Source: Candidatus Hodarchaeota archaeon (GTDB taxonomy: Archaea > Asgardarchaeota > Lokiarchaeia > Sigyniarchaeales > SOKP01). Taken from it: a stretch of 64,000 nucleotides of DNA. Shown piece after piece: positions 5,556 through 62,297 of this stretch. The stretch covers positions 51,294 through 115,293 of the forward strand of contig JBHLJY010000007.1 of NCBI GenBank assembly GCA_048887225.1. Reading direction: 5' to 3'. A model generated the notes under the pieces. It saw only the letters and a program-made list of their open reading frames with translations, did not search any database and was not told the origin of the DNA. Every line of letters starts with the position of its first letter. Within the stretch, counting starts at the first letter, position 1. Position numbers and translations under genes: made by a program.

Positions 5556-6098
5556 TTAATAATTATTTATTATTCCCAAAACTATTCTTCTGGTTTTGTT
5601 TTTTAAATCCTCAATAGTAGAGCTATTTTCTATTTTATATTCAGCTTTCTTAATAACATCCTTTAATCCGAAATGAATTTCCCTTTTGTCCCTTTCTCTT
5701 AATTCACTAATAGTCTTAGGATCATCGCGACGTCCTCTTTCATAAAGTCTTTTGAATCGTATATTTTCATCAATAACCGTTGCTATTAAAGGGAATTTCC
5801 AACTCTTTCTAAATATATTTATTTCTGCGATTGATCTCACACCATCTACAAAGATAACATCGCACTTTAAATTATTAATTAATTCAACGCACATTTTAGC
5901 AATAATTTCTTGTCCACCTTCGTTTCTTAAATTATTTGCAATCTTTCCTAAATTTACGTCTGTAGGTTCGATACCCCTTATTTTTGCTTCGTTCCGTATT
6001 ACATCTCCCATTGTGATTATTGTCCCTAAATCGCTTATTGCTTCCATTGCAGTTGATTTACCGGAACCAGGAAGACCACAGAATCCTATTACTTTCAA
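5556..6098 (-). CDS. P-loop nucleotide kinase, archaeal UPF0200 / CoaE-like family
   Basis: 180 aa. Walker A GLPGSGKST at the N-terminus, and FVDGVRS plus RGRRDD typical of small NMP/dephospho-CoA-kinase-like proteins. Confidence 0.7.
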   Translation of the reverse strand: MKVIGFCGLPGSGKSTAMEAISDLGTIITMGDVIRNEAKIRGIEPTDVNLGKIANNLRNEGGQEIIAKMCVELINNLKCDVIFVDGVRSIAEINIFRKSWKFPLIATVIDENIRFKRLYERGRRDDPKTISELRERDKREIHFGLKDVIKKAEYKIENSSTIEDLKNKTRRIVLGIINNY

Positions 6099-21430: not shown

Positions 21431-21832
21431 TTATAAAAGGCTAGTTAATTTTAATGCGTAAGATTGTACAGCAAATAATGCATCTCTTGGTCCTACTTGA
21501 GGATTTATATAACAGATTAAGGCGCCATTACCTCCGATAGGAACAGGAGCAATAATAATATGTCCCTGACCGGTAATATTTGTCCCAATTTTTCTCTCTT
21601 CCGTGTTTTCCACGACCATGTATTTAATTCCTTGTATTGTTATACTTGTAATGCCTTTTTGACCTAGATCGGGATTATTTTGGATTAATTCATTAATAGG
21701 ACCTAAATCATTTGAAATATCCCAATTTTCGGTCTGTGTAACGAGTGAACCATCCAGACCGATTATAGCAACGCCATGAACATTTTGTTCCTCATCTAAC
21801 AGATCGTTAATTAAACTCTCTATTGTTGACAT
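21431..21832 (-). CDS. profilin-like protein (Asgard-type profilin)
   Basis: 133 aa. AIIGLDGSLVTQTENWDIS, then GITIQGIKYMVVENTEE.., then IIIAPV....ALICYINPQVGPRDALFAVQSYALKL are collinear with eukaryotic profilin blocks (AIIGHDGSVWAQS / LGGTKYMVIQGE / [25 protein letters not shown]). Confidence 0.75.
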   Translation of the reverse strand: MSTIESLINDLLDEEQNVHGVAIIGLDGSLVTQTENWDISNDLGPINELIQNNPDLGQKGITSITIQGIKYMVVENTEERKIGTNITGQGHIIIAPVPIGGNGALICYINPQVGPRDALFAVQSYALKLTSLL

Positions 21833-29851: not shown

Positions 29852-30376
29852 TTAGTAAAAACCTGAATCTTCCATCATTAATCTAGTTAATGCTTCGAAA
29901 GTTGTTTCTACATTCTCCCCTGTTTTCGCACTGCATTCTATAAATGCAGCAACATCCCTTGATTTGGCCATTTTTATACCCTCTTCACCTGTTACTTCTC
30001 GCTCGACAGCAAGATCGGCTTTCCCACCGACTACAATTATTGGAAATAATTTATTCATTTCTTTTTGAATTACAAGCAACCAATCGTCAATATGAGCTAA
30101 AGATGAATAATTTGTTATGTCGTACATAAAAATTCCTCCGGCTGCGCCTCTGACATAAGTTGGTAATATAAATCTAAATCTTTCTTCTCCACCAAAATCC
30201 CAAATTTGCAATTTAATTTTTTTATCATCAATTTCTAGACTCTTTACTTCAAATTCTACTCCAATAGTCATTCTGGAATCGGATTTAAAAAGATTAGTCA
30301 TGTATCTCTGAGTTAATGTGGTTTTTCCAGTACCTGCATCACCAAAGATGACTATTTTATAAGTCGCGTCGTACAT
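29852..30376 (-). CDS. small GTPase, Rab/Ras-like (divergent G3 and G4 motifs)
   Basis: G1 GDAGTGKTT, switch I TIGVEF, G3 WDFGGEE (Glu where Rab/Ras have the catalytic Gln), G4 GGKAD (not NKxD), G5 ECSAK. Confidence 0.9.
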   Translation of the reverse strand: MYDATYKIVIFGDAGTGKTTLTQRYMTNLFKSDSRMTIGVEFEVKSLEIDDKKIKLQIWDFGGEERFRFILPTYVRGAAGGIFMYDITNYSSLAHIDDWLLVIQKEMNKLFPIIVVGGKADLAVEREVTGEEGIKMAKSRDVAAFIECSAKTGENVETTFEALTRLMMEDSGFY

Positions 30377-37897: not shown

Positions 37898-38431
37898 ATG
37901 AGTCAAAATGAGAACGCATTTGTATTCAAAATAACTGTAATTGGAGATGGAGCTGTAGGAAAAACTTCTTTAATTAAGAAATACACCCAAGGTTCATTTC
38001 AAAAAGATTATATTAAAACTTTAGGAGCACAGTTTTCTAAATATGACGAGGAAATAGATGGCGATAATGTCAAATTATTTTTTTGGGATATTGCCGGTCA
38101 GGCGGAATTTATGTTTATGCGCCCTACTTTTTATAAAGGGTCAAAAGCAGCTATCATTGTATTTTCTCACGCCCCTGGAGAAGAAGAAAGTTATGAACAC
38201 GTTGTTCAGTGGCATGATGATATCAAAAATTTCTGTGGAGATTTACCTATAGTATTATTTGGAAATAAACTTGATTTAGTTAACGAGAAGAATTTAGATG
38301 ATAAAAAAGTACAAGATTTAATAAAAGACCGAAATTTCCTTGGATATTATAAAACTAGTGCAAAAACTGGTAGTGGAGTGTATAAAGCTTTTCAAGCAAT
38401 AATAAGGGAATTATATAATAAATATAAATAA
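37898..38431 (+). CDS. small GTPase, Rab-like
   Basis: G1 GDGAVGKTS, switch I TLGAQF, G3 WDIAGQ, G4 GNKLD, G5 TSAKTG. No C-terminal Cys prenylation motif. Confidence 0.9.
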   Translation: MSQNENAFVFKITVIGDGAVGKTSLIKKYTQGSFQKDYIKTLGAQFSKYDEEIDGDNVKLFFWDIAGQAEFMFMRPTFYKGSKAAIIVFSHAPGEEESYEHVVQWHDDIKNFCGDLPIVLFGNKLDLVNEKNLDDKKVQDLIKDRNFLGYYKTSAKTGSGVYKAFQAIIRELYNKYK

Positions 38432-38807: not shown

Positions 38808-39296
38808 GTGAAAAATATGGACCGCCAATTATTATCAAAAATATTGTCACAAATGAAAAAACATCTCAAAGAAAAGAAGGAAATAGGGGATATGAAAGTT
38901 GGAGCTTTACTAGCTTTGGGACACCAATTAGAAGCTATATTTTATTATTTAGGCCACGAATTAGGAACTATTCTAAGTGTTAAACGAGTTAAAGATGTAA
39001 AACATATTCCCGAAGCGTTAAAAAAAATAATTTCGGAATATAATATTGGAGATATTACAATTACGGAAAGTAAAGAAGAAATAGTTTCATTAAAATTGAA
39101 AGGGCACTCTTCTAGTAAAGATTTAATTGGAAAAGGTATAAAAGCAGAAGGAAATTTTTGTTCTTTTGAAGCAGGGATGCTAGCTGGGATTGTCGAACGA
39201 ATGAGTAATATCCACTGCTTTGCTCAAGAGTTAAATTGTAGTTTACAATCCGGAGAAGGTGCATGCGAATTCATGATAGTATTTCAGAAAGATTAA
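38808..39296 (+). CDS. V4R domain protein (Bet3/TRAPP-fold-related)
   Basis: 162 aa. The C-terminal GNFCSFEAGMLAGIVERMSNIHCFAQELNCSLQSGEGACEFMIVF fits the V4R Cys pattern (C.F.aG.l.G.....E..C...G...C.F). GTG start; an alternative ATG is at 38817. Confidence 0.65.
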   Translation: MKNMDRQLLSKILSQMKKHLKEKKEIGDMKVGALLALGHQLEAIFYYLGHELGTILSVKRVKDVKHIPEALKKIISEYNIGDITITESKEEIVSLKLKGHSSSKDLIGKGIKAEGNFCSFEAGMLAGIVERMSNIHCFAQELNCSLQSGEGACEFMIVFQKD

Positions 39297-39388: not shown

Positions 39389-39919
39389 ATGACTGAAAGA
39401 AATTATGTTGTTAAAATTTGTTTGTTAGGGGAAGCAAATGTGGGAAAAACTTCATTGGTGTATAGATTTATTGAAAATAAATTCAGAGACAACTATAAAA
39501 GTACTCTGGGAGTTAATCTTTTAAAGAAAGATCTCGATATTGATAATTACACGGGAGTTTCGGCTCAAATATGGGATCTTGGAGGGCAAGAATCTTTTAA
39601 AAGTCTAAGGAAATTATATTTAGAGGGAGCCAATGGTGCTCTTATAGTTTACGATACAACAAAAAGAAAGACCTTTGATAGCCTCAGCGATTGGGTTCAA
39701 AGCTTTCGAGAATCAAGGGGAGATCAACCGTTATTATTAATAGGAAATAAAATTGATTTAAAAAATAAGATAAAAATCGACGAAAAAGAAGCTAAAGAAT
39801 ATGCGGAAAAAAATCAAATGGCGTTCCTTCTAACATCGGCAAAAACTGGTAATAACGTTGAAACAGCATTTAAAGAATTAATAAAGACTATCCTCGATAA
39901 AGCTATGTCGAATAAATAA
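39389..39919 (+). CDS. small GTPase, Rab-like
   Basis: G1 GEANVGKTS, switch I TLGVNL, G3 WDLGGQ, G4 GNKID, G5 TSAKTG. No prenylation Cys. Confidence 0.9.
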   Translation: MTERNYVVKICLLGEANVGKTSLVYRFIENKFRDNYKSTLGVNLLKKDLDIDNYTGVSAQIWDLGGQESFKSLRKLYLEGANGALIVYDTTKRKTFDSLSDWVQSFRESRGDQPLLLIGNKIDLKNKIKIDEKEAKEYAEKNQMAFLLTSAKTGNNVETAFKELIKTILDKAMSNK

Positions 39920-49605: not shown

Positions 49606-50154
49606 CTAAGCCTTTTTACCCAATTTGTTTAAAATATTATGGACCAGATTTTCAAAAGCCTTTTCTACATTCTCGCCATATTTTGCGGAAGTTTCTATGA
49701 AATCACTCGCATTAATTTCGCTCCCAAAACTACTACCCTCCTCTGTTGACACTACTCGCTGTTCCGATAAATCAGTCTTGTTTCCAATTAAAATATAAGT
49801 CCCTTCTTTTTTAACATATTTATTGAAATCCCGCAACCATTTAGAATTAATTGTCTCAAAAGTAGCACGTCTAGTTATGTCATAAACTAATAACGCTCCA
49901 ACGCATCCTTGGAAATACATTGAGCGAATTACATTATATTTTTCTTGTCCAGCAAGGTCCCACATTATAAGGCGAACATTAGCATTAATTTTTTCCAAAT
50001 GCATATCCTTTCTAATTATGTTCGCCCCAAGCGTAGGTTTATAATCTTCCTGAAACGAATGTTCTATATACTGGTTAATTAGAGATGTTTTACCTACAGC
50101 TGCATCTCCCAAAACCACTATTTTGAACACGAATTCTTTAACTTCTTCCGACAT
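49606..50154 (-). CDS. small GTPase, Rab-like
   Basis: G1 GDAAVGKTS, switch I TLGANI, G3 WDLAGQ, G4 GNKTD, G5 TSAKYG. Close paralogue of 50809..51345. Confidence 0.9.
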   Translation of the reverse strand: MSEEVKEFVFKIVVLGDAAVGKTSLINQYIEHSFQEDYKPTLGANIIRKDMHLEKINANVRLIMWDLAGQEKYNVIRSMYFQGCVGALLVYDITRRATFETINSKWLRDFNKYVKKEGTYILIGNKTDLSEQRVVSTEEGSSFGSEINASDFIETSAKYGENVEKAFENLVHNILNKLGKKA

Positions 50155-50202: not shown

Positions 50203-50709
50203 TTATTTTTTCCATATTAATTTCAAAATATATGGTTTATGAGTAAGATCTGGTATCTTTTCATCTTCATTTGTATAAATAACTCTTCTATTGTCTGGTA
50301 TCGCTTTTTTTAAAGAAGTGACGAGAAAACCAGTGAATAAATTGCATGGAACTCCAACCTCACTGCAAAAAATACAATTTTGAATTTCAACTGTAACAGA
50401 ATTTTTTCCTTGATCTATTATTCGAACGGCCCAATTTGTTTTAATTAATACGTTAATTTCTTGAATTATTTCTTCAAAAGGTTTTCCCCAGGGAAAAAGA
50501 TAAAAAGCAAATTTTTTACCGACTTCATATTGAAGTCTGTAACATCCGTATAACAATAATTCTTGAGCTTTGATGATTTTCTTAAAAGATAAAAAATCTA
50601 TCGTATCGTTTGGATCTACATTTTTGTTATCTTTTATCTTTAACATATCAGCTTCTCTTAACACAGATTTCATTCCATCGTAATCAAGAATATCTAAATA
50701 AGCTTGCAA
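50203..50709 (-). CDS. V4R-like domain protein (partial motif), function unknown
   Basis: 168 aa, TTG start. IQNCIFCSEVGVPCNLFTGFLVTSL matches the first half of the V4R Cys motif (C..C.....PC....G.l). The terminal E..C...G..C.F block was not seen. Confidence 0.45.
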   Translation of the reverse strand: MQAYLDILDYDGMKSVLREADMLKIKDNKNVDPNDTIDFLSFKKIIKAQELLLYGCYRLQYEVGKKFAFYLFPWGKPFEEIIQEINVLIKTNWAVRIIDQGKNSVTVEIQNCIFCSEVGVPCNLFTGFLVTSLKKAIPDNRRVIYTNEDEKIPDLTHKPYILKLIWKK

Positions 50710-50808: not shown

Positions 50809-51345
50809 TTAAATTTTCACTCCATAATTACTTAAAATGTTATAGGCTAAATTTAAAAACGCTTTTTCAACGTTTTTTCCAGTTTTGGCACTTGTTTCTA
50901 TGAATTCAATTGCTTTAATTCGCTCCGCCATGTTATGAGCATCATCTTTAAAAACATATCTTTGCTCTTCTAAATCGGCTTTGTTTCCAATTAAAATATA
51001 TGATCCCTCTTTTTCGACATGGTTTTTATAATCTGTAAGCCACTTATACTCAACATTTTCAAAGGAAGAATATCTAGTAATATCGTAAACTAATAACGCT
51101 CCTGCGCATCCTTCATAATATGCACCCCTAGTTTTTTCATATTGTTCTTGTCCAGCAATATCCCAGAGAATTAAACGAGCATTGGAATTAATTTGCTCTA
51201 ATTTGATGGTTTTCATGATTAAATTCACGCCCATAGTTGCTTTGTAATCTTCTTTAAACCTTTCCTCTACAAATTGGTTTACTAATGATGTTTTCCCAAC
51301 TCCAGTGTCTCCTAATACTGCAAGTTTTAATACGTAGTCTGACAT
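50809..51345 (-). CDS. small GTPase, Rab-like
   Basis: G1 GDTGVGKTS, switch I TMGVNL, G3 WDIAGQ, G4 GNKAD, G5 TSAKTG. Confidence 0.9.
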   Translation of the reverse strand: MSDYVLKLAVLGDTGVGKTSLVNQFVEERFKEDYKATMGVNLIMKTIKLEQINSNARLILWDIAGQEQYEKTRGAYYEGCAGALLVYDITRYSSFENVEYKWLTDYKNHVEKEGSYILIGNKADLEEQRYVFKDDAHNMAERIKAIEFIETSAKTGKNVEKAFLNLAYNILSNYGVKI

Positions 51346-55959: not shown

Positions 55960-57675
55960 TTACTTTTCAATAGACTCTACATATTCTGAAATTTTCTCAG
56001 TTATTATTTCTGGTTTCTCGGCTTCGGCACCCTTTTTCACATGAGCAAGTTCCAAGCGCTCCCTATGCAAGGTATTCATAGCACAAAAGGGCACTTCCAA
56101 AACTTTGGTTGGGTCATCTGGGTCAATTATTCCATAGTGTACAAGACAGGACTTTATCCTATTAAGGTCAAAATTATAAGCGTCTTGAAAATGCATTGCA
56201 CTAACAAGCATATTGCCAGTAAGTAAAAAGTTGCCAGCTGTTCTCATGTTTGGAGCAATTACTAGTTTGCCTAATGATTGAAAAAATTTGCTATCTAACA
56301 CTTTTTTAATTTTTACATATTTAAACATACCAGCAAAGAAATAGGCCTTCATCATTTGCCTATAGCCAATATTGGTCATATCATCGATAAATTTTCCAAC
56401 TGTAGCTGCAAGGCTACCATAATCCGCTAAATTAATGTTTCCTAAAAGACCGGTAGGTTTTGGCACTTCCCTCGATTGGACCATGTCGTAGACTTTGTTA
56501 GACCATCTAAGTAATCCTTCTACATCTACATAATGTTCAATGGGTTCCCACTCATTATTTTTGTTTATGATCCCTATAGTGGCAAAACCACAGTCGTGAT
56601 GGCTTGTAGTTGACCAATTCGGAGCATCATCAAACCATGCTAATAATCCCGTGAATTTGGCAGTTGTTGCGAGAGGATAAAATTTTGTAATCATATTATT
56701 TGTTGCTTTATTAATATCTACTTTTAGGTCGGAAGTTGTGTATCTTAAATCCATTAATTCTTCGAAACTTATACGACCACATAGAGAAACTGGTTGGAAA
56801 ACCACACCCCCACATATGTCTTTATATTCTTTGGCAAATTCCATAATTGGGCCAACTTGACTGTCGTTTACACCTTTAGCTATAACAGGGACTAACATAA
56901 GAGTAATTCCGCCTACTTTTCGAATATTATCAACAGCTCTCTTTTTGATGGGCCAAAGATTAACTCCTCTTACTTTTTTCCAAACCTCAGGAGCGTCGGT
57001 TGCATCAAACTGTAAATATATAGTATCGAGTCCAGCATCTTTCATTTCTTGAAGATATTCAATTGATTTAGCAATTCTTATCCCATTTGTTGAGACCATA
57101 ATATCAAGAAATCCCATCTCTTTACCTACTCGAATCATTTCTGGGAGATCGTCTCGAAGCGTTGGTTCTCCGCCAGCAAATTGAAGCAAAACTGCTGGAG
57201 TTGGTTTCATAGATCTAAAATGTTCCATAATTTGTATGATATCGTCGAAACTAGGCTCAACAACATAACCTTTCGCACTCGCATTCGCGAAACAGATAGG
57301 GCATGCCAGATTACACCTATTAGTGATATCTATTAAACATATACAAGGAGCACTTAGATGATTCTTACAAATGCCACAATCATAGGGACATCCTTTCGCA
57401 TCTTCCCTAATTCCTGAAGATACTTCACAAGGTTTCGTTGAAATTTTATCGCCTTTTGTCGAACCGATTTCTTCTGTAAATTTCATGCTCCACTTGTAAT
57501 CGTCAGCATTGATGGAGATTTTATCCTTGAACTCGCCATGATCTTCACAAGTTTTTCGAAGCATTACATAATTATTTGTAGGATCTACATAAAATTGCGC
57601 TGGTATTTGCGTTAAGCATTCTGGGCACAAAGACATAGTTTCCCGTACAATCTCATACTCTGTCATAAAAATCAA
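55960..57675 (-). CDS. radical SAM enzyme, COG1964-type (tetraether lipid synthase Tes/GDGT-MAS-like candidate)
   Basis: Contains the N-terminal zinc-ribbon-like CPEC...CEDHG, the Cys-rich CPYDCGICKNH...PC, and the radical SAM CNLACPIC (Cx3Cx2C). Length is about 570 aa. The likely true start is the ATG at 57666 (MTEYEIV). Confidence 0.8.
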   Translation of the reverse strand: MIFMTEYEIVRETMSLCPECLTQIPAQFYVDPTNNYVMLRKTCEDHGEFKDKISINADDYKWSMKFTEEIGSTKGDKISTKPCEVSSGIREDAKGCPYDCGICKNHLSAPCICLIDITNRCNLACPICFANASAKGYVVEPSFDDIIQIMEHFRSMKPTPAVLLQFAGGEPTLRDDLPEMIRVGKEMGFLDIMVSTNGIRIAKSIEYLQEMKDAGLDTIYLQFDATDAPEVWKKVRGVNLWPIKKRAVDNIRKVGGITLMLVPVIAKGVNDSQVGPIMEFAKEYKDICGGVVFQPVSLCGRISFEELMDLRYTTSDLKVDINKATNNMITKFYPLATTAKFTGLLAWFDDAPNWSTTSHHDCGFATIGIINKNNEWEPIEHYVDVEGLLRWSNKVYDMVQSREVPKPTGLLGNINLADYGSLAATVGKFIDDMTNIGYRQMMKAYFFAGMFKYVKIKKVLDSKFFQSLGKLVIAPNMRTAGNFLLTGNMLVSAMHFQDAYNFDLNRIKSCLVHYGIIDPDDPTKVLEVPFCAMNTLHRERLELAHVKKGAEAEKPEIITEKISEYVESIEK

Positions 57676-59576: not shown

Positions 59577-60080
59577 ATGTCTTTAAGATGGAAAAACGAT
59601 TATATGGAAAACTTTGGATTTAAACATAAACAATTAGAATTCAACGATAATAGATTTCACGCGATTTATTTCGTAGATAGTGTGACAGGTGCTTTACTTT
59701 TAAGTAATAGATATTCAGATAACTCTCCCGGAATATCTAAAAATTACGACGATTTAATTGGCAGTTTTTTGAACGCAATAAACATGTTTATTAGAGAAAT
59801 TAAAAGCAATAAAGACGAAGAAATTCAAGAAATAAATTTTAAAAAAACGCGAATCATTTATGAGAAGAGAGGGCGATTAATTTGTATCGCAATTTCTAAA
59901 AAAACCAATCTCCAAACTGAAAGACAGATCATTCACGAAATTATGAAAGATTTTTATTATAGATTTGAACATGAGATAAATGAATTCAAAGGTTTCATTG
60001 AACCTAAAATTTTAGATTATAAAACCCGATTAAAATACCTAAATTTGAACTCCTTAGTCTCGTTCAATAAAAATATTTAA
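59577..60080 (+). CDS. small longin/roadblock-like protein (inferred fold), function unknown
   Basis: 167 aa. Pattern FHAIYFVDS / ALLLSNRY / DDLIGSFLNAINMFIREI / IQEINFKK / TRIIYEKRG / LICIAISKK / TERQIIHEIMKDFYYRFEHEI fits beta-beta-alpha-beta-beta-beta-alpha. Confidence 0.45.
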   Translation: MSLRWKNDYMENFGFKHKQLEFNDNRFHAIYFVDSVTGALLLSNRYSDNSPGISKNYDDLIGSFLNAINMFIREIKSNKDEEIQEINFKKTRIIYEKRGRLICIAISKKTNLQTERQIIHEIMKDFYYRFEHEINEFKGFIEPKILDYKTRLKYLNLNSLVSFNKNI

Positions 60081-60089
60081 AAAAAAGCG

Positions 60090-61427
60090 TTAACTCTTTC
60101 TGTGTTTTTTTAGTTGATCTAACCATTTTTCTAAGTCAGTTTTAGTTGTTTCGCGTTCATCTGGTTCACGTCCGATTTTTTTTTGTTCAATTTTTTCAAT
60201 CTCGGATTCGAGTTTTTCACCTATTGCTTTTACATCAGCTTTCAAACTTTGCCGTTTTTCGTCCAATTCACGTTGTTTATCTATTCTAAAGGCTTTTTCC
60301 CCAACTGAATGAGTTATAGCTTTAGCTGAAGTTTCCATATCAGGTTTTAACTCTTTAAGTTCAGTGTCCCTCTCTCTTTTTTTGTCAATCATGAATGCTT
60401 TTTCACTGACAGACTTACTTATGGCTTCAGCAGTGCTCTCTATTCTTGGTTTCAATTCTTTAAGTTGAATATCTTTTTCTCTTTTCTTTTCAATCATGTG
60501 AGCTTTTTCTTCGATTGATTTACTTATTGCTTTGGCAGATTTTTCCATGTCCGGTTTTAATACTTTGCGTAGAGTATCTCGTTCTTTTTGTTTCTCGATC
60601 ATAAAGGCTTTTTCGCCGATAATTTTGTTAATCGCCTCGGCAGATTTCTCAATTTCAGGTTTTAATTTCTTAAGTTGAATACTTTTTTCCCTCTGTTTTT
60701 CGATCATAAAAGCTTTTTCTCCGACAGATTTTCTAATTGCTTCAGCGGTACTTACTATTCTGGGCTTCAATTCTTTAAGTTGAATGTCTTTGTCTCTTTT
60801 CTTTTCAATCATATAAGCTTTTTCTTCGATTGATTTACTTATTGCTTCGGCAGATTTTTCCATGTCCGATTTTAATTCCTTGCGTTGAGCATTTCTCTCT
60901 TTCTTCTTTTCAATCATAAAGGCTTTTTTGTCGACAGATTTGCTAATTGCTTCCATTGATTTTGCTATGTTTGGTTTCAAACCTTTAAGTTGAGCGTCTC
61001 TTTCCCTCTGTTTTTCGATCATAAAAGCTTTTTCGCTGACAGATTTACTTATAGCCTCAGCGGTGCTTTCTATTCTGGGTTTCAATTCTTTAAGTTGAAT
61101 TTCTTTTTCTCTTTTTTTGTCGATCATATATGCTTTTTCTCCAATTGATTTGCTGATTATCTCGGCAGATTTTTCAATGTCTGGTTTTATTCCTATACGT
61201 TGAAGATCCTTTTCTCTTTTTTTATCAATCATAAAAGCTTTTTCGCCAATAGATTTTTCTATTTGTGTTTTACTTTCTTCGAAAGATTTCTTTCTTCGTT
61301 CTTCAGTTTTTTTTAAATATTTTTCTCTCTCCTCCTTTTCTTGTTTGAATAGATCTTCAATAATTTTTTTCTGTTTTTTGACGTCTTCTGGATCTAATGG
61401 TTTTTCATTTTCTTCCATAAAATTCAC
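60090..61427 (-). CDS. repeat protein: ten tandem 35-aa Lys/Glu-rich helical repeats
   Basis: 445 aa. The motif (E/S)KA(F/Y)MI(D/E)K recurs at residues 61, 96, 131, 166, 201, 236, 271, 306, 341 and 376, an exact period of 35. Confidence 0.75.
   Translation of the reverse strand: MNFMEENEKPLDPEDVKKQKKIIEDLFKQEKEEREKYLKKTEERRKKSFEESKTQIEKSIGEKAFMIDKKREKDLQRIGIKPDIEKSAEIISKSIGEKAYMIDKKREKEIQLKELKPRIESTAEAISKSVSEKAFMIEKQRERDAQLKGLKPNIAKSMEAISKSVDKKAFMIEKKKERNAQRKELKSDMEKSAEAISKSIEEKAYMIEKKRDKDIQLKELKPRIVSTAEAIRKSVGEKAFMIEKQREKSIQLKKLKPEIEKSAEAINKIIGEKAFMIEKQKERDTLRKVLKPDMEKSAKAISKSIEEKAHMIEKKREKDIQLKELKPRIESTAEAISKSVSEKAFMIDKKRERDTELKELKPDMETSAKAITHSVGEKAFRIDKQRELDEKRQSLKADVKAIGEKLESEIEKIEQKKIGREPDERETTKTDLEKWLDQLKKHRKS
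60228..61280 (-). repeat. coding tandem repeat, 105 bp unit, organised in 315 bp (3-unit) super-repeats
   Basis: DNA segments about 315 bp apart are near-identical. One example is ttcaatcat(a/g)t(a/g)agctttttcttcgattgatttacttattgctt(c/t)ggcagatttttccatgtcc at about 60490 and about 60800. Protein units 2-3-4, 5-6-7 and 8-9-10 correspond. Confidence 0.85.
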
Positions 61428-61544
61428 TCTTATAAAAAAAGAAGGTCCTTAGTTATAATTATAAGACCTTGATTATTATAATTTTCTTATTGAAAATTAA
61501 TTTTATAAAAAAATTAAAATGAACCAATATTGCTTTCAAAACTC

Positions 61545-62297
61545 TTATTTATTTATTGGAAGAGGTTCAAATGATTCATCTATAGAATCCATTAAACTCA
61601 AAACAGTAAGTCGCATTGCCAGCATTTCTTCAACTTCTTTCATTAATTTCTTATACGATTCTGACTCCTTTGATAAATTATACTCACCAACCAGTTGATC
61701 ATAAGTTTCTTTTAACTGTAATTTTAAAGTGTCTTGACTATCTAAGCTAAGTTCTTGAATTTCAAGCCAATTATCAATCTCTTTCTTTATTTTAATTTCA
61801 TTTTCATCGTTTAAGATATAAGAAACCTCTATTTCCTCATAATCCTTAATTTTGCTGAGATAGTCTTCATCTGAATACATTGGTTTAAGTAATAATCCGA
61901 GATTAATAATTAAAGGCTGAAGCTGTAATTTCTCTAAGGAACGGGAAAGAAAATTAAGGATTTCTTCTTTTTGTGATAGATTAGAATAGGTAATATATTC
62001 CTGAACAAATCTCATAAGTGAATTTTTTATTAATAACTCGTCGTAGTCTTCTAAATTTTCAGCCTTTATTTCTAAAGTTTTTTTTATACAAATAAAAACA
62101 GAATTCATAAAGGGTTTTATTTCTTTAAACATAGCAAAATTAGTTATAAAATTAAATGTTTTACCTAAGACTTTTGATTTTATATCCTCCGATTCCGATT
62201 TAAAAGTATAGTTTACAACTTCCTCCAGATCAAATCTATCATCAGGAATTGATAAAAAGCTTTTTATCTCGGAATATAAAGATCTAAGTTCAGTCAC
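61545..62297 (-). CDS. hypothetical acidic helical protein
   Basis: 250 aa, E/D/L/K-rich. It sits on the same strand between the DUF362 gene and the repeat-protein gene. Confidence 0.5.
   Translation of the reverse strand: MTELRSLYSEIKSFLSIPDDRFDLEEVVNYTFKSESEDIKSKVLGKTFNFITNFAMFKEIKPFMNSVFICIKKTLEIKAENLEDYDELLIKNSLMRFVQEYITYSNLSQKEEILNFLSRSLEKLQLQPLIINLGLLLKPMYSDEDYLSKIKDYEEIEVSYILNDENEIKIKKEIDNWLEIQELSLDSQDTLKLQLKETYDQLVGEYNLSKESESYKKLMKEVEEMLAMRLTVLSLMDSIDESFEPLPINK

Follow-up and report, generated by a model that had tools for sequence, protein, structure and literature searches.

A lineage-specific family of 35-residue repeat proteins in Loki-type Asgard archaea, with a tentative role as length-adjustable helical scaffolds

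The subject of this article is a protein built almost wholly of repeats. Its gene lies in a stretch of 64,000 nucleotides from Candidatus Hodarchaeota archaeon (GenBank assembly GCA_048887225.1, contig JBHLJY010000007.1, positions 51,294 to 115,293 of the forward strand), which we call the window. Ten tandem units of exactly 35 residues make up the array, and units 2 to 10 form three super-repeats of 105 residues; both levels of organisation are real. They mark a previously undescribed family of repeat proteins, genuine and so far specific to archaea of the Loki-type Asgard group. The gene is a real one, subject to selection; its period is exact, and its copy number often changes in three-unit steps. 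The family is invisible to homology searches, is called 'hypothetical' wherever it has been named, and is usually truncated in assemblies, as repeats break contigs. Yet it is conserved, under selection and unusually regular, with 35 residues to the module and changes of length that come mostly in 105-residue steps. We infer a scaffold function for it.

The gene and its ten-unit array

The open reading frame (ORF) occupies window positions 60090..61427 on the minus strand and gives 445 amino acids (aa) if read from the GTG at 61427; the stop codon is at 60090-60092. An ATG at 61418, three codons inside the ORF, seems the likelier start, because several orthologs open with M-EENEKPL. Across 60090..61427 the opposite strand has no ORF of 60 aa or longer. 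The G+C content of the window is 30%. The whole protein has a net charge of +24 and an isoelectric point (pI) of 9.5; the array has net +24 and pI 9.65, and the head and cap are neutral. Its architecture is a head of about 50 aa, then the 35-aa units, then a GIGEKLESEIEKIEQKK cap. The parts are listed below with, where they apply, the ratio of nonsynonymous to synonymous divergence (dN/dS) and the predicted local distance difference test (pLDDT) of the AlphaFold model.

60090..61427, minus strand: the repeat-protein gene, an ORF with orthologs in 18 loci and dN/dS of 0.08-0.48
61278..61427, minus strand: conserved N-terminal head, residues 1-50, EENEKPL.PEE.EKQKKI.E.L.K.EKEERE.YLK..E..RKK.FE; AlphaFold helix 13-78, pLDDT about 90
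60228..61277, minus strand: array of ten units of exactly 35 aa, residues 51-400, from the repeat analyses; pI of the region 9.65
60858..61172, minus strand: super-repeat 1, units 2-4, residues 86-190, from the unit matrix and synonymous divergence (dS)
60543..60857, minus strand: super-repeat 2, units 5-7, residues 191-295; one continuous helix in AlphaFold, pLDDT 86.7
60228..60542, minus strand: super-repeat 3, units 8-10, residues 296-400, with unit 10 degenerate
60093..60227, minus strand: C-terminal cap, residues 401-445, made up of conserved AIGEKLESEIEKIEQKK, an acidic linker and the terminal helix TDLEKWLDQLKKHRKS
60093-60140, minus strand: the terminal helix TDLEKWLDQLKKHRKS, after the acidic linker

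The motif KA[FYH][MR]I[DE]K stands at residues 63, 98, 133 and so on to 378, and each of its nine spacings is exactly 35 residues. The preliminary description of this DNA, made from its letters alone, was right about the period. It was right, too, about the grouping of units into 2-3-4, 5-6-7 and 8-9-10. Tandem Repeats Finder reported a period of 105 nucleotides (nt) with 8.7 copies and 70% matches, and a period of 315 nt with 2.8 copies, 80% matches and 0% indels. An independent repeat search returned eight copies spaced exactly 105 nt from start to start; pairs of these copies are 78% and 75% identical at distances of 315 and 630 nt, against 67-70% for the others. In the unit-by-unit matrix, mean nucleotide identity is 75% at an offset of three units, compared with 67-68% at offsets of one, two and four. 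Units 2, 5 and 8 are the closest set (84-91% nucleotide identity with one another), unit 10 is degenerate (40-51% amino acid identity to the other units) and unit 1 groups with the conserved N-terminal part.

Between super-repeats, nucleotide identity is 71-80% and the longest exact run in common is 34 nt, so that the 'near-identical stretches' of the preliminary description were an overstatement. Nor does the recent unequal recombination that it suggested fit the window. The triplets differ by a dS of 0.84-1.9 with dN/dS of 0.10-0.18, and are therefore old duplicates under purifying selection; units 2, 5 and 8 alone are younger or have been homogenised (dS 0.3-0.6). Recent triplet copies do exist elsewhere: in the related locus L005, units 4-6 and 7-9 share 96.5% of their nucleotides. 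An assembly artefact was ruled out for the window array, which has no exact shared run longer than 34 nt; complete arrays are found in 16 independent assemblies.

Across 74 units the consensus reads xxxEAISKSIxEKAFxIEKQRExDxxRxELKPDIE. I6 is invariant, and K13, F15, K19, E22, K31 and P32 each recur in 90% of units or more, in keeping with the LKP(D/R)I unit ending noticed earlier. Charged residues make up 46% of the composition and I, L, M, F, V, W and Y together 25%.

The terminal helix TDLEKWLDQLKKHRKS is found only in the window protein, in L001, L002 and L003, and in the distant relatives P0001 and P0002; it is missing from the L004-L008 and L005/L006 clades. P0001 ends in a second copy of it, VKWFIQFNFLRKST. 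The helix may be a docking motif. The stretch LEKWLDQLKK bears a partial resemblance to LxxRLxxL[KR], the MIT-interacting motif MIM1 of ESCRT-III; most orthologs do without the helix. Upstream of the gene, at 61431-61470 on the minus strand, a 6-bp inverted repeat (AAGGTC ... GACCTT) with a 17-nt loop could form a weak hairpin. It is followed by a T7 run and TATAAG, 10-15 nt ahead of the start codon. This element could be a terminator of the preceding gene (which encodes an acidic protein), a promoter element, or chance in AT-rich DNA.

Relatives, copy number and gene neighbourhood

A scan of one genome per prokaryotic species turned up 12 related loci and a scan of metagenomes six more, making 18. 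The 12 come from metagenome-assembled genomes (MAGs) labelled Promethearchaeota or Promethearchaeia, plus one each labelled Thorarchaeota, Hermodarchaeota and 'uncultured archaeon'. Three parts recur in all the orthologs: a head of about 50 aa (EENEKPL.PEE.EKQKKI.E.L.K.EKEERE.YLK..E..RKK.FEESK), a number N of 35-aa units, and a cap, GI[GS].K[IL]E..IEKIE.KK. The window protein and 15 other full-length orthologs all combine this head with at least six in-register units (EKAF..EK.RE.D...KP) and the cap (GI[GS]xK[IL]E..IEKIE.KK). The spacing is held without exception in the 19 orthologous sequences, where 170 units meet at 151 junctions, all 35 aa apart, with zero indels, a regularity far greater than chance would give. 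The frame is translated and under purifying selection, as the dN/dS of 0.08-0.48 between orthologs implies.

What varies is the number of units. The comparison among relatives that the preliminary description had proposed gives a range of 6 to 12, the counts for the 16 full-length proteins being 6, 6, 7, 9, 9, 9, 9, 10, 10, 11, 11, 11, 12, 12, 12 and 12. (L016 was counted at six and really has seven, one of its units having W for F.) In the closest relative, L001, the neighbouring proteins are 91-97% identical to those of the window and the repeat protein is 73% identical, with 9 units against 10; the array is therefore the fast-evolving part of the locus. One clade, that of L004, L008 and L010, has 12, 9 and 6 units.

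The steps of three have a clear signature. In the window, L002, L004/L008, L005 and L006, the best match of each unit within its own protein lies three units away, and in those five lineages that match is closer than any unit of another lineage. Nucleotide identity at offset three reaches 85-100% in these loci, compared with 50-70% at other offsets. Three-unit (315-nt) duplications and deletions have thus occurred repeatedly and independently, in at least five lineages. The three unit 'types' differ between lineages, and unit totals are not always 3n or 3n+1; the triplet is therefore not a conserved A-B-C structural domain. There is possibly a geometric reason for it. At about 3.62 residues per turn, 35 residues would rotate a helix by about -120 degrees and 105 would restore the same face.

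Further afield, phmmer compared the protein with all of 1.84 billion representative proteins and returned 46 matches at E <= 0.001, 26 of them at E <= 1e-10. Most are fragments of 50-150 aa at contig ends, from which it follows that the repeats commonly break short-read assemblies. The named members are all annotated 'hypothetical protein' and come from Promethearchaeota, Lokiarchaeia and Sigynarchaeota. A word-indexed homology search with the full-length protein gave no match, probably swamped by K/E-rich candidates, and the same search with two-unit profiles gave only 12, then 3, short fragments. The most widely conserved part of the family is the head with unit 1. Distant members retain both and differ in their tails: P0004 and P0016 have a 37-aa period, some spacings in P0001 are 32 and 36 aa, and the Sigynarchaeota proteins P0032 and P0046 carry a different tail repeat of about 40 aa behind the conserved head and first unit. 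Two adjacent 'hypothetical' genes in one Promethearchaeota MAG, P0005 and P0022 (MHA1148452.1 and MHA1148453.1), correspond to the N-terminal and C-terminal portions of a single family member, with unit sequences in common. The gene was probably split by a frameshift or by misassembly within the repeats.

The preliminary description recognised no known repeat family, and the searches of libraries and structure databases agree. By sequence or profile search, neither the whole protein nor its unit or head has a credible counterpart in Pfam, NCBIfam, PHROGs, PADLOC or PDB, and hmmscan of the window protein against Pfam-A returned 0 families at E <= 0.1. The searches of PHROGs and PADLOC gave nothing meaningful, so this is neither a viral nor a defence gene. 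An Rfam scan of the whole window found no RNA family. When orthologs were scanned, L004, L005 and L008 among them, Pfam Entericidin scored in five of eight (best E = 5e-9), an artefact of a short motif, KTGEAI..K.., summed over the units; UBA_SIK3 (best E = 2.6e-5) and DUF6398, seen in some orthologs, are artefacts of the same repeated motif. Tandem repeats, in other words, inflate whole-sequence hidden Markov model scores.

The genes around the repeat gene, and others of the window that bear on its interpretation, are as follows.

61545..62297, minus strand: acidic protein of 250 aa, pI 4.57, net charge -18, upstream of the repeat gene; no family match; syntenic except in L018
62395..63744, minus strand: DUF362-domain protein of 449 aa (Pfam), the first gene of the conserved block
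59577..60080, plus strand: convergent neighbour of 167 aa with a sub-threshold longin-like match (Fuz_longin_1, E = 2.8e-4)
55960-57675, minus strand: radical-SAM protein with an HMPTM-type N-terminal zinc ribbon (Pfam PF23545, E = 1.7e-14), which ends the conserved block
21431-21832, minus strand: Asgard-type profilin of 133 aa (Pfam Profilin, E = 2.4e-7, above the gathering score), about 40 kb from the repeat gene
29852-30376 (minus), 37898-38431 (plus), 39389-39919 (plus), 49606-50154 (minus) and 50809-51345 (minus): five Ras/Rab-like GTPases, one with a Pfam Ras match at E = 1e-51, the others with a G1 motif

The block runs from DUF362 through the acidic 250-aa protein, the repeat gene, the convergent 167-aa gene, a 158-aa protein, a 72-aa zinc ribbon and a 131-aa membrane protein to the radical-SAM protein, which is 64-97% identical across the related loci. 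The order is held in all 18 loci as far as their contigs extend, with one exception: L018, from a metagenome (5743-5967), is without the acidic gene and has DUF362, about 225 nt, then the repeat gene. DUF362, acidic and repeat genes had been described as a three-gene unit. Their order is indeed kept in nearly all loci; that they are transcribed together is less secure, given AT-rich spacers of 97 and 117 nt and the state of L018. Gene order is in any case weak functional evidence here, because the entire block is syntenic within one clade.

The stop codon of the 167-aa gene lies 10 nt from that of the repeat gene, and their convergent arrangement is kept in 18 of 18 loci. Its longin-like match, below the Pfam cut-off, is to the first longin domain of FUZ/MON1/HPS1; a PDB profile search with 12 orthologs gave no match. 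Nothing significant came from a PDB search with the acidic neighbour. The ortholog of this acidic protein in L004 (9075-9815; MAG Loki_b31) has an in-frame stop that ends the ORF at about 174 aa, which could mean that the gene is a pseudogene, that the sequence is in error or that the codon is recoded. Next to GTPase genes lie those of a V4R/DUF2507 protein (38808-39296) and of a protein of 168 aa (50203-50709). Profilin and five Ras-like GTPases in the window are typical of Loki-type genomes.

Predicted structure and candidate functions

AlphaFold2 modelled the full-length protein as helices at residues 13-78, 82-146, 154-418 and 428-444, with a mean pLDDT of 72.7 and a predicted template modelling score (pTM) of 0.24; at that pTM the model fixes no tertiary arrangement. 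Three units on their own, modelled from a slightly deeper alignment, came out as a single helix from residue 2 to 104 (pLDDT 86.7). Foldseek found 0 matches in PDB for the full-length model, as expected for a rod with a pTM of 0.24. Covariation was scored as mutual information with average product correction over 147 distinct two-unit windows. The top column pairs have separations of 1, 3, 4, 5 and 7 and recur in both halves of the two-unit alignment, and no pairs of the hairpin or bundle type appear among these windows. Pairs 33-36 and 34-38 are those of a helix that continues from just past P32. Opposite-charge pairs at i+3/i+4 number 87, an enrichment over the 72.6 +/- 6.9 of shuffled sequences (z about +2), whereas like-charge pairs, at 56, are depleted relative to 75.2 +/- 6.9 (z about -2.8). 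The protein is predicted, then, to be helical with no detectable tertiary contacts, and the preliminary description of it as K/E-rich and helical holds, the prediction being all-helical. In most units the residue at position 11 is G, S, D or N; with I10 and F15 on either side, the site resembles a helix N-cap with a hydrophobic staple.

The block E12-K13-A14-F15 ... E18-K19-x-R21-E22 (columns 12-22) is conserved on all sides of the helix. Conservation of EKAF..EK.RE.D all the way round is characteristic of a linear binding motif, and not of a core or of a face turned to a membrane.

The reading we favour, to which we give slightly less than an even chance, is that of a basic, extended helical rod which carries a motif every 35 residues and acts as a multivalent, length-adjustable scaffold or tether. 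It would be a cytoplasmic structural protein specific to Loki-type Asgard archaea, with an N-terminal helix of about 50 residues, a rod of 6-12 modules and a short cap. The modules would be long, solvent-exposed, charge-stabilised alpha-helices with neither a globular fold nor that of a solenoid; a continuous helix would make the array about 52 nm long, or about 5.25 nm per module (350 residues x 0.15 nm). Each module would display E-K-A-F-x-x-E-K-x-R-E-x-D to an acidic, probably periodic or multi-copy partner, and rod length would be tuned through the gain and loss of three-module (105-aa) blocks by unequal recombination. Candidate partners would be the lokiactin filament, the adjacent acidic protein, or the repeat protein itself.

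Several things count against this. The 35-aa period is not universal, distant relatives having 37 or about 40 aa, and the named relatives, all 'hypothetical protein', lend a scaffold role no support from homology. The AlphaFold alignments are very thin, and AlphaFold tends toward long helices for such sequences. Shared ancestry of the paralogous units confounds and inflates the covariation. Position 11 and K31-P32 could break the helix, which would make each module a helix-kink-helix that the model has missed, and with about 25% of its residues strongly hydrophobic the protein is richer in them than one would expect of a free single alpha-helix, pointing to possible self-association or a hidden fold.

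Should its partner prove to be a periodic polymer, archaea would have in the rod their first lineage-specific ruler or scaffold of the cytoskeleton, one that arrived at the nebulin principle independently. As a mere spacer or tether the rod would still offer a clean natural case of length tuning through modular helical repeats. Either way, the protein is a tractable target for expression and cryo-electron microscopy.

Self-association is the essence of one alternative, which we think unlikely: a self-assembling coiled-coil or filament-forming cytoskeletal protein, akin to intermediate filaments or crescentin, whose helices would pair via I6, I10, A14, I17, L30 and I34. A unit of 35 residues is 5 x 7 and preserves heptad register from one unit to the next, AlphaFold shows coiled-coil monomers as long single helices, and a strongly hydrophobic quarter of the sequence would suit pairing. 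A weak match to the designed antiparallel coiled-coil barrel sc-apCC-6 (E = 0.0014) points the same way; this, the only match in PDB, we attribute to shared K/E-rich helix composition. The distribution of the hydrophobic residues tells against pairing. They concentrate in columns 5-17, leaving columns 18-29 nearly all charged, and the Fourier power of column hydrophobicity is split between periods of 3.89 (579) and 3.5 (445), with no heptad class clearly hydrophobic. There is no continuous a/d stripe, and the information content by column has no 3.5-3.6 periodicity, on which two counts we reject a canonical coiled coil. Homotypic packing is further disfavoured by the net charge of +24 and by the proline that recurs, near-invariant, in each 35-residue unit.

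The favoured scaffold has a more specific form, a ruler of the nebulin type. A ruler associated with membranes or filaments had already been ventured, as a hypothesis, in the preliminary description. The protein would bind the side of lokiactin, one 35-residue module to each actin subunit (about 5.5 nm), and its 6-12 modules would stabilise or measure some 33-66 nm. By analogy this may be so, and we rate it as rather unlikely; quite improbable, in our view, is the elaboration in which the protein is an independently evolved archaeal functional analogue of nebulin or tropomyosin, a lokiactin ruler that would set or stabilise filament segments of about 33-66 nm in the protrusions of Loki-type cells. 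Actin is acidic and the rod is basic. The dimensions agree as well, 35 residues at 0.15 nm giving 5.25 nm. [S/G/D/N]-E-K-A-[F/Y]-x is loosely like the S-D-x-x-Y-K of nebulin and is conserved round the helix, as a linear binding motif would be, and the host is an Asgard archaeon with a profilin gene in the same window. At 35 aa the module is as long as a simple repeat of nebulin, which covers about 5.5 nm for each actin, and like it is basic, helical and arranged in super-repeats (PMC7109182).

Closer comparison is less kind to a nebulin-like ruler. Pfam Nebulin has no match to the window protein, and in a scan of eight orthologs at E <= 10 it is not among the 25 families listed of the 37 matched. 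The likeness of motif spans only three to four loose positions: the unit runs [G/S/D/N]11-E12-K13-A14-[F/Y]15-[M/R/L]16, and among 74 units the residues of SDxxYK appear as S at position 11 in 23, Y at position 15 in 6 and K at position 16 in 2. The F-actin short linear motif (SFM) has a hydrophobic residue at P1, L at P4, F at P8 and E at P9 (PMC13364712). It does not fit either, for with F15 as P8, P9 is M, R or L, P4 falls on variable position 11 and P1 on K8. No actin, gelsolin or profilin gene lies in the conserved block, profilin being about 40 kb off, and the family is limited to the Loki and Sigyn lineages whereas lokiactin is found across Asgard archaea. A three-unit super-repeat matches no known actin periodicity, and the periods of distant relatives are 37-40 aa.

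Alternatively, the partner may be encoded next door. Each basic module would then dock one copy of the acidic 250-aa protein or of the longin-like one, for instance in a tether of the small-GTPase/longin trafficking kind, an arrangement we regard as decidedly improbable. The charges are complementary (+24 for the repeat protein, -18 for its acidic neighbour), the gene order is kept in all related loci but one, and the window holds five Ras-like GTPases as well as the longin-like gene. Against these stand the synteny of everything from DUF362 to radical-SAM, where order may reflect only common descent, the absence of the acidic gene from L018, spacers of about 100 nt, the convergent orientation of the longin-like gene and the failure of its longin match to reach the Pfam threshold.

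Very unlikely, to our minds, is a protein that binds membrane surfaces or lipid through proline-punctuated amphipathic helices, as apolipoproteins or perilipins do. Exchangeable apolipoproteins are built of proline-punctuated helical units, and here columns 27-10, which run across the proline, reach a moderate hydrophobic moment (muH) of about 0.45, with a maximum of 0.58, and are net positive. The mean hydrophobicity of these best windows is low, though, at about 0.15; one half of every unit consists purely of charged residues, an 11/22-residue periodicity is lacking, and the most conserved block, EKAF..EK.RE.D, is not amphipathic. The amphipathic helix of the preliminary description thus survives, weakly, for columns 27-10 and fails for the AFMI block on which it was centred (muH 0.1-0.17). 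The least probable reading, a nucleic-acid-binding or protective 'charged helix' protein of chromatin, RNA or stress, has in its favour a strongly basic repeat region with conserved K13, K19, R21 and K31, and suffers from the lack of any match to a nucleic-acid-binding family, from the lack of hypervariable 'code' positions such as those of TALE, PPR and PUF (variable positions 23 and 25 are not so paired), and from leaving the strict module length and the invariant exposed Phe unexplained.

Comparison with known systems

Short K/E-rich stretches recall stathmin and beta-thymosin (EERRKS; KPDM..EKF) by eye only, with no support from Pfam, and WH2 (a helix plus LKK[TV]) and beta-thymosin are rejected as there is no match to Pfam WH2 or Thymosin. 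Exchangeable apolipoproteins share tandem K/E-rich helical units split by a conserved proline; they differ in a period of 11/22 against 35, and the Asgard protein is only weakly amphipathic, purely charged over half of each unit and without a signal peptide. The PPR (35 aa) and TPR (34 aa) solenoids are alike in unit length and all-alpha composition, and the PPR consensus also ends in ...KPD. They have no Pfam match here, however, and a solenoid core would need more hydrophobic positions than the repeat has; neither AlphaFold model contains a hairpin, and the covariation is local only.

The spectrin repeat is a three-helix bundle of about 106 aa, and a 105-aa super-repeat made of three helical segments of about 35 residues invites the comparison. 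Unlike spectrin (PF00435, no Pfam match), the Asgard protein is modelled as a straight helix with no bundle and has no long-range covariation; its unit totals are not always multiples of three, and its unit types are not kept between lineages. With the ER/K single alpha-helix the protein has its predicted shape in common, a long uninterrupted helix of high charge, enriched in opposite-charge i+3/i+4 pairs and free of tertiary contacts. The composition is another matter: ER/K domains are very rich in E, K and R and have almost no hydrophobic residues, and the Asgard protein is only 46% charged and about 25% strongly hydrophobic. Its strict 35-residue repeat with a Phe motif and a near-invariant Pro is likewise foreign to ER/K helices.

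That leaves nebulin, whose basic helical modules of 35-40 residues, about 5.5 nm each, carry one aromatic motif apiece and are arranged in super-repeats of variable copy number (PMC7109182). The Asgard protein is archaeal, gives no match to Pfam Nebulin (PF00880) and has EKAF..EK.RE.D in place of SDxxYK. Its super-repeats are of three modules, against seven in nebulin, its modules number only 6-12, and it has no SH3 or LIM domain. In design nebulin is nonetheless the nearest analogue: like the simple repeats of nebulin, nebulette, LASP and N-RAP, the Asgard modules are basic, largely helical and non-globular, have about 35 residues and a short aromatic motif each, are grouped in super-repeats, though of another size, and vary in number from species to species.

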